Shown here piece after piece: positions 3,011 through 9,707 of a DNA stretch of 64,000 bases (positions within the stretch are counted from its first letter, which is position 1; each line of letters begins with the position of its first letter). Source of the DNA: a phage; the sequence record PV730299.1. One strand, given 5' to 3'. The position numbers were made by a program, and so were the translations under genes. A model generated the notes under the pieces. That model ran no database searches. It was not told the DNA's origin and saw only the letters and a program-made list of their open reading frames with translations.

Positions 3011-3316
3011 GTGCAAGAACAATCCAAGTTTGGGGAAACCCCAGACAAGCGTTCCGGTGATAGCGACATGGATAGCGTGATTAACCATGTGAACAACTTC
3101 ATTCGTCAGCAGGAGACTCCAACTCCTATCGGTGCAGCCAAGGCTCTTCATGATGTACTGGTGAAGATCGGCCAGCGCTCTGAAGCGGATGAAATCTTCT
3201 ATAACTTTGAAGACCAGTATAAAGTGAAGTTTGAAGAAAACGGTCGTCCGCAGGTTGCTGTGTTCTGGGCACCTTGGCTGGGCGGCGTGAGCTGGCGTAT
3301 TGAGGATGCTGTGTAA
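3011..3316 (+). CDS. hypothetical protein
   Basis: GTG start preceded by AGGAGG at 2999-3004; stop overlaps the next start (ATGCTG). Confidence 0.5.
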   Translation: MQEQSKFGETPDKRSGDSDMDSVINHVNNFIRQQETPTPIGAAKALHDVLVKIGQRSEADEIFYNFEDQYKVKFEENGRPQVAVFWAPWLGGVSWRIEDAV

Positions 3317-4002
3317 TGCTGTCGCTCTACCTGATCACGAATCTCGTCAATCATAAATTCTATATCGGTGTCACCTCAGAACCGGATAGGCGGTTGGCTG
3401 AGCATAAGTGTGGTCAGGGGAGCATTGCATTACAACGAGCGTTCAAGAAATACGGTGAAGACCAGTTCAAGTTTGAAGTTCTGTTCCGAGGGAAAGATTC
3501 GGTTATCCTTGAGATAGAGTCTGAACTGGTCTGCCAGGAGATCCTTGACTCTGGGTGGTGCTACAACATGGTCGTCGGGGGTGGGAAGCCTCCATTGGCC
3601 ACGCCAGAGTCATCCGCAAAGAGCGCCGCAACCCGCAAACGTTTGATCGCTGAAGGTAAGATTAAACCTCCACCAAGACTCACCCCTGAAGCACAAGCCA
3701 GAAAGGGTAAGATCATAAGCAAATTGATGTCAGAAGGGAAGATCCCCAAACCACCAAGACCTTCCTCTGAATCTCAAACGCGTGGAGGGGGAACTAGGAA
3801 GAGGCTGCATGCTCTTGGTCTGATAGACATTGGTCCTGGTCGCGATGAAAAGATTTACAAATGGCAGCACAAAGATGGTCGCATCGTTGAGTTAAGAAGA
3901 TGCGACATGGAACTTCAATATGGCCTCCCTTCCGGTAATATAACGAATCTCTTGAAAGGTAGGGCTAAAACATGTCTCGGTTGGAGAATATTAAATGGCT
4001 AA
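3316..4002 (+). CDS. GIY-YIG homing endonuclease
   Basis: N-terminal LYLITNLVNHKFYIGVT (GIY...YIG signature) followed by two basic repeats GKIKPPPRLTPEAQARKGK / GKIPKPPRPSSESQTRGGG resembling NUMOD-type DNA-binding repeats. Confidence 0.75.
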   Translation: MLSLYLITNLVNHKFYIGVTSEPDRRLAEHKCGQGSIALQRAFKKYGEDQFKFEVLFRGKDSVILEIESELVCQEILDSGWCYNMVVGGGKPPLATPESSAKSAATRKRLIAEGKIKPPPRLTPEAQARKGKIISKLMSEGKIPKPPRPSSESQTRGGGTRKRLHALGLIDIGPGRDEKIYKWQHKDGRIVELRRCDMELQYGLPSGNITNLLKGRAKTCLGWRILNG

Positions 4003-4912
4003 AATAATTGTAGTGAAAGGCACCTCGGCCACGGGCAAGGGTACGAGAGTGGTCCAGTTCATCGAATGGCTGCGCACTAAGCTGGAGCCTACCGAACTGA
4101 CCTACACCGTTGGTGACAAGACTCGCCCGTTTGGCCTGAAGTTCGGAGAGCTGAAGTTAATCTTCGTTGGGCAGTACACCGTGTCTAACAAATCCGGTCT
4201 GGCTTCCTGGACTTCAATGGATGCAATCCATGCTGCTACAGGCTCAGGCGATATTGCTCGTGATCTAATCAAGTGCTGGTTGGTTCAGGGATACACTCTG
4301 GTGTGTGAGGGCGAACCTCTCATGCTATCGGACAAATGGCGTCCTGAATGGATGTTCAAGAACTATCCGATTGAATCATTGGCGCTGCTGTACTTTGCGT
4401 ACCCCGACCGCTATCAGTACGATGCTCGTATCCGTGGTCGATCTGGTAAAGAAGCAGGGAACTCCGGCTGGTCGCGCAACGAATCTTACTACAAGGAGTT
4501 TGAGAAGTCGAAGGCCGAAATGCTGGCGCTGGGCTTCACTGTGGCTGTTGATGATTACAGCGGACAGGATATCCTGTATAAATCACCGGATGCCAACACC
4601 AAGGAGTTCACAACCAAACAGCAGTCTGAGTTGGCGGTACTACCGTTCGACGCCCCGCTGTGGGTTGTGGGTAATGCGATTTGTCATCAGATCCGCTCTG
4701 AACTGCGTGGTGTTGACATGCACACCAAAGACTTCTACGCCTACTGTGAAACCAATCCGATGACTCGTGAAATCGGCGGCCAGGATCCTTTGGCGCACAG
4801 AGTCCCTGAGAAGCCGCAGAAGGCATCCAAAACTAAAACCAAGGCGAGCGCCCAGCCAGAAGCACCGAAGGCAGCGTCGCGCTCTCTCCTTGACCTGATG
4901 AAGAAGGGGTGA
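3995..4912 (+). CDS. P-loop NTPase, kinase-like; function unassigned
   Basis: Walker A-like GTSATGKGT at residues 9-17 and a Walker B-like LVCEGE; 305 aa. No match recognised to T4 Pnk, Tk or gp1. Confidence 0.5.
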   Translation: MAKIIVVKGTSATGKGTRVVQFIEWLRTKLEPTELTYTVGDKTRPFGLKFGELKLIFVGQYTVSNKSGLASWTSMDAIHAATGSGDIARDLIKCWLVQGYTLVCEGEPLMLSDKWRPEWMFKNYPIESLALLYFAYPDRYQYDARIRGRSGKEAGNSGWSRNESYYKEFEKSKAEMLALGFTVAVDDYSGQDILYKSPDANTKEFTTKQQSELAVLPFDAPLWVVGNAICHQIRSELRGVDMHTKDFYAYCETNPMTREIGGQDPLAHRVPEKPQKASKTKTKASAQPEAPKAASRSLLDLMKKG

Positions 4913-5489: not shown

Positions 5490-5655
5490 TTTTATCTTCA
5501 TGATGTTGATGTTCGTTATCTTTACGGTTTCGCTGGTCGGCGTCATGGTCACAGAAGGAGTGCAACAGCGCCCATTCTTGGTGATATGTCCTGTATCTAT
5601 CGCCACTTTCTTCTATCTGGCGTTCCGTGTTGAACTCGGGAGTAAAATCGGATGA
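5470..5655 (+). CDS. small membrane protein
   Basis: 61 aa with two predicted transmembrane segments; overlaps the downstream start by 4 nt. Confidence 0.4.
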   Translation: MKIKQVDFIFMMLMFVIFTVSLVGVMVTEGVQQRPFLVICPVSIATFFYLAFRVELGSKIG

Positions 5656-6887
5656 CACATCTGTCTAAAATGCCGCAGGGATATAAAGCCCCTGAAAAAT
5701 GGAAATACCCGATTGATCTGGCAATAGATTATCGTAAGCCAGAAAATCGCATGTACCTACTCAAGGCTTGGGTGGAGGCGCTGTCCTACACCGAAGAGCA
5801 CAACCAGCAGATGCGTCTGATGGACTATGCGATCGAAGTCACTGAAGGTATCAGCCTCGAACAGAAAGTCGAGCGCAAGATCTGGATGGCATTCCTGTGG
5901 GGTTGTTGCTATAACGCCGTCGGGCCGTGGACGATCTACAGTGAGTTCCCTGTACCACCCCAGTCCAAAGAAGGGATGCAGCGCTTCTCTGATTGGTATA
6001 ATCTGAACTTTGATCGCATGCGATTCGATACCGACTGTCGCTACCGCAAGTCCAAGATGATTCCGTGTGTTCAGTCCTATATTGACTGGCTGGCTGGCCG
6101 TACTCAATATGACGCTTTCCGTGGGATGTTGGTGTGCATCGATAAGACAGAACAATTCACCCAGCTGTGGGACACGGCGATGTCCTGGAAATACTTCGGT
6201 CGCCTGAGCGCCTGGAACTTCCTGGAAGCCCTGAACATGGTCTTCGGGAACGAATACACCATTGACGTCCCTGGCTTCATGCTGCGTGATCGTGATGGAA
6301 GCGAGTCCAACCGTAATGGCGCGGCGTTCTTGTCCAACCGTGACGATTGGGTGACTAAACACGGGAAGAAAAAGATCAACGGTTGTCCTATCACGGATGA
6401 AGAGTGTGACATCCTTGAGGCCGACCTTGAGCAGGCGTTCCAGGATTGTGTGGCTGAGTTCGGGCACCTGACGTTCATCAACCGCCTGAACTTTGAAACC
6501 TCCGGCGCTTGTTGGCTGAAGAAATTCTTCCGACTGAAGAATACCCGTTACATCGGGTGGGACGCAGAGCGTACCTGGGATGAGATAGACTACATGGAAC
6601 GCGTCTGGCCTGAATACTCCTGCGCAGAGCTCTGGGAAGCCCGTTCGCTCTGGCTGCCAGATACCCTGTTATGTGAAAAGGCTCCTGCAGGGCACGTTCC
6701 AGGCGTCCAGAAGTGGAAGATGCCTGTATTCTTTGAGACTGGTGTTCCTCTGCATATCTGGCACCTGCAAAAGGGTACGCGCTGGGAACCATCCGAGGTA
6801 TGTACGAACCTGAAGATGCCTGTGCGCAAGGTTGAGGACAAGTCGAAGTCCAGCAGCGTCAACCTCATGGCACTCTTGAAACGCTGA
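5652..6887 (+). CDS. hypothetical protein (411 aa), function unassigned
   Basis: Long uninterrupted ORF, translationally coupled to the upstream gene; no motif recognised. Confidence 0.65.
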   Translation: MTHLSKMPQGYKAPEKWKYPIDLAIDYRKPENRMYLLKAWVEALSYTEEHNQQMRLMDYAIEVTEGISLEQKVERKIWMAFLWGCCYNAVGPWTIYSEFPVPPQSKEGMQRFSDWYNLNFDRMRFDTDCRYRKSKMIPCVQSYIDWLAGRTQYDAFRGMLVCIDKTEQFTQLWDTAMSWKYFGRLSAWNFLEALNMVFGNEYTIDVPGFMLRDRDGSESNRNGAAFLSNRDDWVTKHGKKKINGCPITDEECDILEADLEQAFQDCVAEFGHLTFINRLNFETSGACWLKKFFRLKNTRYIGWDAERTWDEIDYMERVWPEYSCAELWEARSLWLPDTLLCEKAPAGHVPGVQKWKMPVFFETGVPLHIWHLQKGTRWEPSEVCTNLKMPVRKVEDKSKSSSVNLMALLKR

Positions 6888-6894
6888 TATAAAT

Positions 6895-6917
6895 ATCCTC
6901 GCCTATAAAGCGAGGAT
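6895..6917 (+). terminator. stem-loop after the 411-aa ORF
   Basis: ATCCTCGC / GCGAGGAT 8-bp stem with loop CTATAAA, followed by ATTATC; overlaps a TATAAATA motif at 6888-6895. Confidence 0.3.
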
Positions 6918-6923
6918 ATTATC

Positions 6924-7091
6924 ATGTTACAAGATCTGCTGGTTTATGCGCTTCCTGGCGCGGTTGTCGGCTTCATTGCTGGTGCTCTGGTCTTCCGTAA
7001 ACACGCGCAAGATGGTGAAGTGATTGTTCAGAAAGGCAAAGAGATTCTGGACCAGATCGAAGCCAAACTGGAAGAGCTGAAGAAAAAGTAA
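6924..7091 (+). CDS. small membrane protein (55 aa)
   Basis: Below the ORF-track size cut-off; ATG at 6924, single hydrophobic helix LVYALPGAVVGFIAGALVF, followed directly by a strong intrinsic terminator. Confidence 0.4.
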   Translation: MLQDLLVYALPGAVVGFIAGALVFRKHAQDGEVIVQKGKEILDQIEAKLEELKKK

Positions 7092-7117
7092 TCTGACTGG
7101 GGTTGCTTCCTTCAATA

Positions 7118-7158
7118 AAGGGGAATGGGTTATTATTAGCCCATTCCCCTTTCTTTTT
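7118..7158 (+). terminator. rho-independent terminator
   Basis: AAGGGGAATGGG / CCCATTCCCCTT stem, loop TTATTATTAG, then TCTTTTT; preceded by TTCAATAAA. Confidence 0.7.
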
Positions 7159-7259
7159 GCAAGAATATACATCATGGCAATGCAACGAATTGAAGATATG
7201 TCTCTACTCAACATGGAAGCGACTTTTGGCGCTTCCGTTATCGTCATGGGAGAATCCAA

Positions 7260-7478
7260 ATGATCAAGAACACCCGAACAATGAAGCGCGCAATCGCTCA
7301 CTGTGTCCATTCAGTGGCAACTATTATGTTCCGCCACCACATCACATTTGATGAAGCACTGGACCCACAGTACCATGAAGAGCGTTGGGATTTGTTGTTA
7401 AAGAACGGCGCCAATCCTGAGCATAAAGATCAACTCCTTGGTATGACCAAGGCGCAGCTCGTCGGTGAATCCAAATGA
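7260..7478 (+). CDS. hypothetical protein
   Basis: 72-aa ORF coupled by ATGA to the downstream membrane protein gene. Confidence 0.4.
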   Translation: MIKNTRTMKRAIAHCVHSVATIMFRHHITFDEALDPQYHEERWDLLLKNGANPEHKDQLLGMTKAQLVGESK

Positions 7479-8590
7479 TCTACCTCCTGTTTGGTGTGCC
7501 ATTGGTACTGGCTATCCTGTTTGTGACCTACCACCGCAAGACCCATGAGCCGAAAGAGACTCTGATAGCGACCGCGATTGTAGTGGTGCTATCCTGTCTG
7601 ATTCAGGCGGGGACTTATGCTGCGTTCTCCCTTGGTAGTTCAGGGGATGTTGAGATCCTGAACGGGTACGTCACTGCAAAGGAGCGGAATGAGGTGAGCT
7701 GTGAGCATTCATATGAATGCAACTGTTACTACACCACATCTTGTACAGGTTCAGGAAATAACCGATCTTGTACACAAACGCGTCATTGCAGCACATGCTA
7801 TGAGCATTCATATGACGTGGACTGGGATGTGTTGACGACTGTCGGTAATCTGACGATTGACCGCATTGATCGTCGCGGCCTTGGTCAGCCCCCGCGCTGG
7901 GCGCAGGTTCAGATCGGCGAACCCGCAGCCCGTGAGCATTCCTACATGAACTATGTGCTGGGTAACAAGGACTCTCTGTTCTCTCGCTCGGACCAGCAGT
8001 TTGCTGAGCGCTTCAAAGACAAGATTCCGAAGTATCCCGAAGTCTATGACTACTATCGCGTCACTCGTGTACTGAATGTGTCTGGTCTGGCGTTACCGAC
8101 CACATACTGGAACGACTATCTGAACAATACTCTGAAAACATTAGGCGCTTCACGTCAGGTCAATATCGTCTGGGTTGTGACTTCCGGTCAGCCAGTTGAA
8201 TACTTCCAGGGCTTGGTCTATGCTTGGGATGGTGGTAAAAAGAACGACGTTATCGTCGTGACCGACATCAACAAAGACCTGAAGATCAACTGGGGTAAGA
8301 GCACTTCGTTCGCTGATGGTATGCATAACCGTGAACTCCACTCTCGCAATGGCATGGCTCTCACAGGCCACGACATGGGTGTCGGTGTCATGGCTGATGT
8401 TGTCGCTAACATCACCAAAGGCTACAACCGCGTTGAGATGAAGGAAATGGAGTACCTGAAGTGGCGGGAACTCAAGACCTGGGAAGTTGTGATTGTTGTT
8501 CTGCTAGGCTGTCTACCGTTCACCGCAATTTTCATATTACAGCGAATGGAGTACAATGGTGGCCGTCGTCGTTATCCGTTTAATTTTTAA
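7475..8590 (+). CDS. Cys-rich membrane protein
   Basis: Two N-terminal and one C-terminal hydrophobic helices; Cys-rich segment CEHSYECNCYYTTSCTGSGNNRSCTQTRHCSTCYEHSY in the predicted external domain. Confidence 0.55.
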   Translation: MIYLLFGVPLVLAILFVTYHRKTHEPKETLIATAIVVVLSCLIQAGTYAAFSLGSSGDVEILNGYVTAKERNEVSCEHSYECNCYYTTSCTGSGNNRSCTQTRHCSTCYEHSYDVDWDVLTTVGNLTIDRIDRRGLGQPPRWAQVQIGEPAAREHSYMNYVLGNKDSLFSRSDQQFAERFKDKIPKYPEVYDYYRVTRVLNVSGLALPTTYWNDYLNNTLKTLGASRQVNIVWVVTSGQPVEYFQGLVYAWDGGKKNDVIVVTDINKDLKINWGKSTSFADGMHNRELHSRNGMALTGHDMGVGVMADVVANITKGYNRVEMKEMEYLKWRELKTWEVVIVVLLGCLPFTAIFILQRMEYNGGRRRYPFNF

Positions 8591-8608
8591 TCAAAAGAGG
8601 AAGTAAGA

Positions 8609-9178
8609 ATGTCTCAATCTAAGGGTATCGCAACAGGTTGGATAGTTGGTTTGGCTTTGCTGGGTATAATGATTCTCGGCATCGGTACAGTCATCAGCTA
8701 CTTCAACGACTTCAACCGCACTGAGCAGCAGGTCAAGAAGTTCAACAAAGACTCCGAGAACTACCTGAGCAACTACACGCTCAAAGTTCAGGAGACGGCG
8801 CAGATTCCTGACATGTATAAAGACGGCCTGAAGGAAGTGATCAAAGGCACGTTCGAAGGGCGTTATGGCGCTGATGGTTCCAAGGCCGTCATGCAGTGGA
8901 TCCAGGAGCAGAATATTCAGTTCGATTCCAGCCTGTACAAAGAGATCCAGGTGGTGATCAGTTCTGGGCGTGATGAATTCCGCATCAGCCAGACCAAGAA
9001 GCTGGATATCTGCACAATATACGAAACTAAGCTGGCTCAGTTCCCTGGTTCGTTGATTGCTGGCATGTTCGGCTACCCGCGTATCGACCTTGACAAGACC
9101 TGTCAGGTGGTGAGTGATACCCGTACCCAGGCCGCGTTCGACGCTGGTATTCAGAAACCGATTAACTTCAAAGGCTGA
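8609..9178 (+). CDS. LemA-family protein
   Basis: N-terminal transmembrane helix and the C-terminal signature FPGSLIAGMFGYPRI ... QKPINF characteristic of LemA proteins. Confidence 0.65.
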   Translation: MSQSKGIATGWIVGLALLGIMILGIGTVISYFNDFNRTEQQVKKFNKDSENYLSNYTLKVQETAQIPDMYKDGLKEVIKGTFEGRYGADGSKAVMQWIQEQNIQFDSSLYKEIQVVISSGRDEFRISQTKKLDICTIYETKLAQFPGSLIAGMFGYPRIDLDKTCQVVSDTRTQAAFDAGIQKPINFKG

Positions 9179-9182
9179 TGTC

Positions 9183-9596
9183 ATGAGCGTGAAACTCACT
9201 GAATCCCTGACACTGGACCAACAGCAGGCTTTGTTGGATGAGGTAGTGATCTCTGCTATCAAGCAAGGGATTATCAAAGACGACTTGTTGATTGACCGTC
9301 CCGAGATGATCCATCATCTGGTGGTGTGCCTGGGTGAGGCCAGCAACCCTCGCAAGAAGATCGTGCTGTTTACTGATGGTGTGATCCTTCCGAGCGGGAA
9401 ATGTGCGTTCTTGGATGTGGTTGAACATCCGAACACGAAAGGCAAAGAGGTCAAGACTTCTGTTCCGGTGACTCCATACACCGAGGGTGTTGACCATCTG
9501 TCTTGGTTTGAGACAATCAACACCATTTATGTGATGACACCGGACGGTAAACCAGTTCGGGATCTACGAGGCGGCAAAGTAGAATCTGAAGACTAA
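9183..9596 (+). CDS. hypothetical protein
   Basis: ATG at 9183 just after the LemA stop (the track's longer ORF from 9114 overlaps LemA); followed by an intrinsic terminator. Confidence 0.5.
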   Translation: MSVKLTESLTLDQQQALLDEVVISAIKQGIIKDDLLIDRPEMIHHLVVCLGEASNPRKKIVLFTDGVILPSGKCAFLDVVEHPNTKGKEVKTSVPVTPYTEGVDHLSWFETINTIYVMTPDGKPVRDLRGGKVESED

Positions 9597-9610
9597 TCGT
9601 TCTTCAATAA

Positions 9611-9646
9611 AAGGGGATAGGGTATTATTGCTCTATCCCTTTTTCG
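9611..9646 (+). terminator. rho-independent terminator
   Basis: GGGGATAGGG / CTCTATCCCT stem (two G-U pairs), loop TATTATTG, then TTTTT; preceded by TTCAATAAA. Confidence 0.65.
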
Positions 9647-9707
9647 TGGACAGGAACATGACAGACAAGCCAAGAAAGATGAAGAACAAACACCGGAGCA
9701 AACGCTG

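Follow-up and report, generated by a model that had tools for sequence, protein, structure and literature searches.

Two adjacent genes in a stretch of phage DNA of 64,000 nucleotides (nt; sequence record PV730299.1, hereafter the window) very probably encode a phage version of the LemA-TPM protein pair of bacteria. The first gene (7475..8590) codes for P1, a membrane protein of 371 amino acids (aa) from the phrog_2087 family, which we describe as the TPM-domain partner of a LemA-like protein, and the second (8609..9178) for P2, a 189-aa divergent LemA homologue from phrog_1383, a family that carries the label 'virion structural protein'. Both open reading frames (ORFs) are where the initial annotation of this DNA had placed them, on the + strand, as are all the other features discussed below unless noted otherwise. 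LemA and TPM proteins are widespread in bacteria, where they are often encoded side by side, and to our knowledge neither has an established function. On balance, we favour the explanation that P1 and P2 act as a phage LemA-TPM pair in a periplasm-facing envelope complex.

LemA- and TPM-type features of the two proteins

The best sequence match of the P2-family profile (48 members) in the PDB was 2ETD, the structure of Thermotoga LemA TM0961 and the only solved LemA structure (E 0.0019), in a near full-length alignment of residues 29–158 with residues 9–155. An hhalign comparison of the same profile with the genuine LemA set (28 PF04011 proteins) gave a probability of 96.9% (E 1.6e-10) over 141 columns, from the transmembrane (TM) helix through the FP...FG(F/Y) motif. 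In the reciprocal search, a hidden Markov model (HMM) of genuine LemA retrieved P2 (E 1.7e-5) as the sole significant match among 761 ORF segments of the window, the next-best segment having E 2.9, and it scored at least 10 bits in 60 of 97 P2-family members vs none of 120 P1-family controls. LemA was also the Pfam family with the most matching P2-family members (PF04011 in 10 of 48 at E up to 1; best E 0.0016).

The LemA C-terminal motif, Y-N-x(3)-I-x(2)-F-P-x(5)-A-x(2)-F-G-F, was found in P2 in the stretch Y138-E-T-K-L-A-Q-F-P-G-S-L-I-A-G-M-F-G-Y156, which aligns to YNtaIkkFPgvifAkmFGF; the segment FPGSLIAGMFGYPRI (aa 145–159; 9041..9085) lies against ..FPgvifAkmFGF.. of genuine LemA. P2 agrees with LemA in its architecture as well, with a length of 189 aa (182–214 aa in genuine LemA) and a single N-terminal TM helix, its only hydrophobic segment being at aa 4–33. 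The P2 model is all-helical, with a predicted local distance difference test score (pLDDT) of 81.9, and a Foldseek search of the PDB with this model ranked 2ETD second, without significance. The central motifs that are invariant in the genuine LemA set (QLQRRxDLIPNLVxTVKGYAxHE and ENYPxLKA) are not conserved in the phage family, which has N.LSNYTLK.QE.AQVP.MY and QWIQEQN in their place. As judged from its sequence, P2 is a divergent member of the LemA superfamily and not a member of PF04011 by the curated definition of that family. Its membership in phrog_1383 is full-length (E 3e-86), and automated 'LemA' labels are attached to some of its relatives, such as RPN242 gp191 and, as a UniRef name, the protein of Klebsiella phage May. 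Matches of the pair to Spore_III_AF, DUF948 and, in PADLOC, LeoBC (16.6 bits) overlap a TM helix and were treated as compositional.

P1 has three hydrophobic segments (aa 1–21, 27–54 and 333–358) and seven Cys within residues 76–108, in agreement with its earlier description, which gave it three membrane helices and an external domain rich in Cys. In its AlphaFold2 model (pLDDT 89.3), an N-terminal helical hairpin is followed by a β-rich domain, an α/β domain and a C-terminal TM helix. The hairpin (7475..7636) is formed by TM1 (aa 1–21) and TM2 (aa 27–54), which were defined by hydropathy and correspond to helices 2–20 and 26–54 of the model; the loop between them is short, basic and predicted to be cytoplasmic. 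The C-terminal TM helix (aa 333–358; 8471..8548), recognized by hydropathy and in the model, leads into a basic tail, GGRRRYPFNF, for which a cytoplasmic location is likewise predicted.

P1 contains a TPM fold: its α/β domain (aa ~199–330; 8069..8464), with the conserved core KQVNI..VV and AW.GGKKNDV, shows the α/β fold of PF04536, and the TPM-like domain that the initial annotation had proposed to look for is indeed present. The structure matches of P1 included chain J of 6ADQ, the TPM-like subunit of the mycobacterial respiratory supercomplex. Sequence identity to the solved TPM proteins AtTLP18.3 (3PW9), Psb32 (8C7I), BA41/BA42, Rhom172_1776, PG_0361 and cg2496 is 10–16%, with no significant profile match, and P1 differs from all of these in that its TPM domain is fused to a novel Cys-rich domain. 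The Pfam scan gave no TPM match (PF04536) in P1 itself, and the P1-family profile found no TPM entry in the PDB. TPM_phosphatase was the Pfam family matched by most P1-family members (12 of 48 at E up to 1; best E 1.8e-4), with scores of 12–18 bits in the members inspected (cutoff 22.1) and always at aa ~207–263. An hhalign comparison of the P1 family with four LemA-linked bacterial TPM proteins aligned the expected core segment (213–264), at a probability of 3%. Scans of P1, like those of P2, against Pfam, NCBIfam and PADLOC yielded nothing above threshold; the membership of P1 in phrog_2087, a family of unknown function, is full-length (E 5e-163). Some TPM-domain proteins reportedly have phosphatase, nucleotide-hydrolase or metal-binding activity, and neither phosphatase nor metal-binding activity can be deduced for the phage TPM domain from its sequence.

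The β-domain of P1 (aa 57–158; 7643..7948), which is rich in Cys and His and was delineated by conservation, Cys covariation and modelled β-strands, had no sequence match in Pfam, NCBIfam or PDB. Among 48 sequences of the family, C84 and C105 are both present in 38, both absent in nine and single in one, C90 and C99 are jointly lost in one, and C82 and C108 are jointly lost in one; these residues probably form the disulfides C84–C105, C90–C99 and C82–C108. C76 is invariant and both H78 and H111 are found in 47 of the 48 sequences, and the three residues could form a metal or catalytic site. A 19-nt direct repeat in the P1 gene (7698–7716 and 7797–7815; 18/19 identical) encodes both EHSY motifs of the protein (C-EHSY-E and Y-EHSY-D, 33 codons apart), which hints at an internal duplication in the Cys-rich β-domain or at a constraint at the nucleotide level.

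In each of three bacterial genomes (Thermotoga, Neobacillus and Carboxydocella), lemA is directly followed by a gene for a PF04536 TPM protein, and because of this 3/3 association we regard P1-P2 as the counterpart of the bacterial LemA-TPM pair. The two systems have in common a ~190-aa helical protein with one TM segment and the ending Y..x..FP....A..FG(F/Y) beside a membrane-tethered TPM protein, and genes that are adjacent or overlapping on the same strand. They differ in that both phage proteins stay below the Pfam thresholds and that the phage TPM protein has two additions, the N-terminal two-helix hairpin and the ~100-aa disulfide-rich β-domain. Both sequences are already known as PHROG families, whose entries (phrog_2087 and phrog_1383) say nothing of a LemA/TPM relationship or of obligate pairing.

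Linkage, distribution and predicted topology

In all 80 loci on the viral contigs retrieved via P2 relatives (80 contigs of 5–407 kb), the gene of the P1 family immediately precedes that of the P2 family on the same strand. Via P1 relatives, 32 bacterial-genome or metagenome-assembled genome (MAG) loci, mostly MAG contigs, were retrieved from 185,579 species genomes. P2 is adjacent in 26 of these, two end at the locus edge, and four (L105, L110, L118 and L119) carry a P1-type gene but no P2-type gene that could be detected within about 6 kb. One of the 26, a MAG contig (L096, 356–1980), has the bacterial order, LemA-like and then TPM-like, and the locus in an Achromobacter isolate has phage-like neighbours, including a YqaJ-type recombinase, RecA and many ORFans. 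Distances within the P1 and P2 families co-vary (r = 0.81 across 59 non-Ackermann loci; none of 999 Mantel permutations reached this value), and no third gene linked to the pair across lineages was found.

The two proteins also occur as a natural in-frame fusion, P0370 (553 aa; L125, 1012–2673, from JGI metagenome 3300014198), in which P1 (1–352) is followed by a linker of ~20 residues and a complete P2 (368–552), with four hydrophobic segments in all. The P2 part of this protein retains its own ribosome-binding site (AAGGGAG) and ATG inside the reading frame.

The initial annotation considered LemA proteins unusual in phage genomes, which does not hold for this family. By tblastn, P2 relatives (the phrog_1383 subfamily) were found in 498 of 50,697 phage records (~1%), and an exhaustive profile search of metagenomes gave 2,135 P1-type clusters at 50% identity, almost all of them 340–390 aa long and matched end to end. 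P2 relatives are found in Ackermannviridae, T4-like Aeromonas phages, Delftia phage ΦW-14, an ICP1 isolate and Sinorhizobium phage phiN3, in the T5-like phages DU_PP_V, PSTCR5, phi 3 and AhSzw-1, and in Erwinia and Rak2/GAP32-like jumbo phages, Lak megaphages and Tenacibaculum phage PTm5. The pair is carried almost only by large virulent phages, usually under the labels 'hypothetical' or 'virion structural protein', and retains 35–45% identity across phages of Proteobacteria and Bacteroidota (Lak, Tenacibaculum) and contigs binned to the Candidate Phyla Radiation. Its conservation is far beyond chance.

With respect to the membrane, the P1 family has a mean net charge of +0.7 in the TM1-TM2 loop and +1.6 in the C-tail, with an acidic edge of the ectodomain, and the P2 family has a basic N-terminus (+1.3) and an acidic segment after the TM helix. 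The two cysteines of P2 (135 and 165), a proposed disulfide, are both present in 27 sequences and both absent in 21, with no sequence having a single one. In three or four P2 relatives, a lipoprotein signal stands in the place of the anchor (LGGC, for instance, in Vibrio phage phi 3). Given its four-helix layout, the two large domains of P0370 would have to lie on one side of the membrane. Because of the charge bias, the covarying cysteines, the lipobox variants and the fusion layout, we infer that both large domains face the periplasm from the inner membrane, P2 apparently being a type-II (N-in, C-out) signal-anchored, LemA-like helical protein. P1 and P2 would be expected, from sequence features, to associate physically, and a periplasm-facing P1-P2 complex seems likely.

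Operon, gene context and timing

Region 7000–9700 shares 97.7% identity with Escherichia phage YX22 and 95% with RPN242, and the P1-P2 region is matched at the DNA level in 236 related phage records, with Salmonella, Escherichia, Dickeya, Klebsiella, Shigella, Serratia and Yersinia as hosts. The window comes from a ViI-like, Aglimvirinae-type phage of the Ackermannviridae.

The operon that contains the pair is bounded by two intrinsic terminators. The upstream one (7110..7153; a 16-bp stem and then a T-run, with an RNA fold of −27.8 kcal/mol and z −5.6) closes the preceding unit of small ORFs, and the downstream one (9602..9645; a 16-bp stem, from sequence and fold, −24.2 kcal/mol, z −5.9) is at a place equivalent to that of a terminator annotated in LIMEstone1. 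The two are direct-repeat copies of one 44-nt element (75% identical), both beginning with CTTCAATAAA(A)GGGGA, which suggests a terminator cassette used genome-wide. An Rfam match to P31 (a Pseudomonas small RNA) at the upstream terminator (31.4 bits vs a gathering score of 40) probably reflects just the hairpin and was rejected.

Between the terminators are a 29-aa ORF, a 72-aa ORF, P1, P2 and a 137-aa ORF. The 29-aa ORF (7174..7263), read from the sequence, is the first after the upstream terminator and is a shortened counterpart of the 71-aa ORF192 of LIMEstone1. The stop codon of the 72-aa ORF (7260..7478; phrog_16350) overlaps the start of P1 (ATGA), and P2 is preceded by the ribosome-binding site AGAGGAAG (8596..8603, read from the sequence), whose GAGGA lies 8 nt before the ATG. 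The 137-aa ORF (9183..9596; phrog_4236) is the last gene of the operon. The 72-aa and 137-aa ORFs are of unknown function and Ackermannviridae-specific, and no linkage of either to the pair was found outside this family. As for the possibility raised by the initial annotation that the pair might be absent from related phages and lack expression signals, the pair was found in all the related phages examined, and the ribosome-binding and coupling signals are in place. An antisense ORF of 228 aa (8591–9277, − strand, TTG start) that spans all of P2 is most likely a shadow ORF. The junction repeat GAATCCAAATGATC is common to two successive gene junctions (7244–7265 and 7459–7480; ...GESK stop / MI... 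start), and deletion or recombination between such repeated junctions possibly lies behind the shortened 29-aa ORF.

An exact T4-type late promoter motif, TATAAATA, one of only two in the window, is found at 6888–6895. It directly precedes a 55-aa ORF (6924–7091; phrog_3879) with a TM/glycine-zipper segment, which is followed by the strong terminator; motif, ORF and terminator possibly make up a tiny late-expressed membrane-protein unit. The motif was rejected as a promoter of the pair since this terminator stands between them.

The operon is flanked on one side by genes for DNA polymerase, a homing endonuclease, a P-loop kinase and an amino-acid:DNA transferase, and on the other by DUF7181, rIIA, rIIB, a Hoc-like protein, MazG and topoisomerase II, the pair being about 1.8 kb upstream of rIIA/rIIB. 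The amino-acid:DNA transferase (5652–6887; PF18724, E 6.5e-60) and the P-loop kinase-like gene (3995–4912) lie upstream of the pair; they are thymidine-hypermodification genes, which are characteristic of ViI-like phages. The window starts inside the DNA polymerase gene (22–1821), which matches only the C-terminal part of its family profile, and a gene for a GIY-YIG-type homing endonuclease is nearby (3316–4002). In LIMEstone1, the polymerase is described as split by an intron and an endonuclease, and the polymerase gene of the window is consistent with such a split.

In 43 non-redundant other lineages, the neighbours of the pair are heterogeneous and mostly belong to nucleotide or RNA metabolism (ligase, PRPP synthetase, NAMPT, PNK, RNR, RtcB and a ClpP-like protease; rIIB was found twice), and among the 150 neighbours scanned no family occurs more than twice. 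Genes for endolysins, holins, spanins or the virion module are not enriched near the pair in these lineages. The gene context of the pair is thus non-structural, of the replication and metabolic kind. A natural comparison is available in ICP1, where isolate 2017_DRC_55 (L084, 2387–3980) carries the pair downstream of ORF40 and isolate ICP1_2006_E is without it at the same position (ORF36–41). The same-strand genes that flank this position in ICP1_2006_E (ORF28–52) have all been classed as 'Early', which points, indirectly, to pre-late expression of the pair.

Possible roles of the pair

In the explanation that we favour, P1 would be anchored by its N-terminal helical hairpin and C-terminal helix, holding the disulfide-rich β-domain and the TPM-fold domain between them, and would join P2 in a single complex at the host inner membrane, on its periplasmic face. 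Both proteins would be made before the late phase, along with the replication and metabolic genes, and until lysis the complex would maintain or adjust the inner membrane of the infected cell or its protein complexes. That the pair actually serves in envelope or membrane maintenance is a tentative proposal, made because other TPM proteins assist membrane complexes as accessory factors from the extracytoplasmic side: TLP18.3 and Psb32 work with photosystem II and MOLO-1 with an acetylcholine receptor, and a TPM-like subunit belongs to the mycobacterial respiratory supercomplex. Since the pair is conserved across phages of very different hosts, a universal target would be favoured.

Several observations weigh against this explanation or its parts. 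P2 is under the curated Pfam cutoff for LemA (PF04011; 13.7 bits, E 0.056, vs 26.2) and had no LemA match in the NCBIfam scan, so that the signature described as clear in the initial annotation falls below threshold in a plain Pfam search, whereas the homology itself stands at the profile level, in the hhalign comparison, the top match to 2ETD and the reciprocal HMM. For P1, the hhalign comparison with the four LemA-linked bacterial TPM proteins gave a probability of 3% (E 0.015) with a shallow profile, and an HMM from only these four sequences, equally shallow, did not detect it. Nor does P1 end in the Gly-rich tail seen in three LemA-linked bacterial TPM proteins (its tail is QRMEYNGGRRRYPFNF vs GGGRGGGG...SSGGGGA.RGW in the bacterial partners), and the gene order is reversed relative to bacteria, TPM preceding LemA in all phage-type loci but one. 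Canonical LemA has been predicted to have its small N-terminus outside the cell, the orientation opposite to that proposed for P2. The P1-P2 fusion is known from one contig in one sample and is supportive, not decisive. No sigma-70-like promoter was found for the operon, and the ViI orthologue of P2 was reportedly found associated with the particle. The maintenance role, finally, is speculative, being drawn by analogy only with a bacterial pair whose own function is unknown.

A role in superinfection exclusion or counter-defence appears rather unlikely. The complex would then block DNA entry or envelope attack by a second phage, as T4 Imm/Sp do, or neutralize a membrane-acting abortive-infection system of the host, for which rII vs Rex is the model. 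T4 Imm/Sp and RI-type proteins are phage-encoded, anchored in the inner membrane and act from the periplasmic side on the infected envelope, and the predicted anchoring of P1 and P2, with large periplasmic domains, would be in keeping with such a role. So would the location of the pair about 1.8 kb upstream of rIIA/rIIB (an rIIA-like gene is downstream in three other lineages) and its accessory nature in ICP1, where it lies within an early block of the kind that tends to hold host-takeover and counter-defence genes. The similarity to the T4 proteins is, however, a functional analogy with no detectable homology, and no homology to any known exclusion or anti-defence protein was found, the only PADLOC match being that to LeoBC over the TM helix. 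Exclusion proteins are usually small, fast-evolving and lineage-specific, and the Imm/Sp and RI-type proteins are small and lineage-restricted, whereas P1-P2 is large, two-component and very widely conserved, with bacterial LemA/TPM ancestry. Its identity level across distant phages suggests a universal target, and it derives from a widespread bacterial pair of the housekeeping type.

A more specialized version of the periplasmic complex, which we consider unlikely, would make P1-P2 a phage-specialized machine and not a housekeeping module that was borrowed. It would use Cys76, His78 and His111 of the β-domain as a metal or catalytic site and, in concert with the TPM and LemA-like domains, remodel a universally conserved component of the envelope by chemical or physical means. 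That component may be, for instance, a lipid carrier, a respiratory or secretion complex approached on its periplasmic face, or the route of DNA entry.

It is quite improbable that P2 is a true virion structural or ejected protein, with P1 as its assembly or membrane-docking factor. This reading draws on the 'virion structural protein' label, which is carried by phrog_1383 and many GenBank entries, among them the ViI orthologue Vi01_204, the ΦW-14 orthologue gp87 and LIMEstone1 ORF195. The CBA120 paper traces such labels to 41 particle-associated ViI proteins detected by mass spectrometry (MS), from which they were transferred (Pickard et al. 2010). ORF195 is nevertheless absent from the published table of 39 MS-confirmed virion proteins of LIMEstone1. 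MS of the Erwinia jumbo phage used crude lysates and does not list the P2 orthologue, for which reason we consider the Erwinia label to have been transferred by similarity. The P2 gene lies outside the structural (late) module; its operon, which terminators delimit, is surrounded by replication, hypermodification, rII, MazG and topoisomerase genes, and its flanks in other lineages are metabolic. The pair occurs, moreover, in Ackermannviridae, T4-like Aeromonas, T5-like and several jumbo-phage groups, which include both contractile- and non-contractile-tailed virions, making a shared virion part unlikely. A signal-anchor or lipoprotein N-terminus and a disulfide-bonded periplasmic domain would fit a membrane protein that co-purifies with membrane fragments. 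In view of its signal-anchor, disulfides and membrane partner, of the non-structural context and of the occurrence in phages with different tail types, the one detection would be better accounted for by carry-over of such fragments than by a structural role. The 'virion structural' label is unsupported by gene context or by the LIMEstone1 proteome.

Equally improbable is a function of P1 and/or P2 in lysis control, as a holin, an antiholin or a periplasmic sensor of lysis timing, lysis timing being, beside superinfection exclusion and envelope stress, among the suggestions of the initial annotation: although T4 RI and T likewise sit in the membrane and expose periplasmic domains, the pair lies near rIIA/rIIB (and, in ΦW-14, three genes downstream of an endolysin), no holin was identified in CBA120 despite the lysis inhibition observed (CBA120 paper), and the P1 orthologue Vi01_203 (L085, 1376–2485; product 'conserved uncharacterised protein') bears the gene name 'host lysis protein', for which no source was found, a 371-aa P1 with a folded TPM ectodomain is unlike any holin class, holin-family matches are scattered, sub-threshold and confined to TM regions, the operon has no endolysin, ICP1 has its own holin/antiholin TeaA/ArrA and, in ICP1_2006_E, does without the pair, and the early-block placement in ICP1 and the replication context here are unlike those of late lysis genes, so that gene context, with no lysis-gene enrichment beside the pair in the 43 lineages, is weakly against a lysis role.

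In the searchable literature, we found no paper that links LemA to these phages, LemA and TPM being mentioned together only in transcriptome lists. Neither there nor in the annotations did we find an earlier record that the partner has a TPM fold, that the pairing is obligate or that the pair corresponds to bacterial lemA-TPM, nor any record of a periplasmic disulfide-rich domain or of how weak the 'virion' label is. It is unsurprising for a large phage to encode membrane proteins of unknown function; this family is large, cleanly defined and experimentally tractable, and could offer a way into two long-standing families without known function. The analysis assigns a fold to a large PHROG family of unknown function (phrog_2087) and casts doubt on a 'virion structural protein' label that, on thin evidence, has spread to many genomes. 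The pair occurs in such well-studied phages as the ViI/CBA120-like and T5-like phages, some ICP1 isolates, ΦW-14, Rak2-like phages and Lak, and its presence in lytic phages with deletable genes, together with its natural presence and absence in ICP1, makes the genetics of LemA-TPM function tractable. If the pair indeed serves the upkeep of membrane integrity or energetics, it would join rII and the SPFH-type phage genes in a general membrane-management toolkit of large phages. If it is instead a phage-specialized machine, it would represent a broadly conserved and so far unrecognized class of envelope-takeover or exclusion system, and would provide the first functional handle on the LemA and TPM families.

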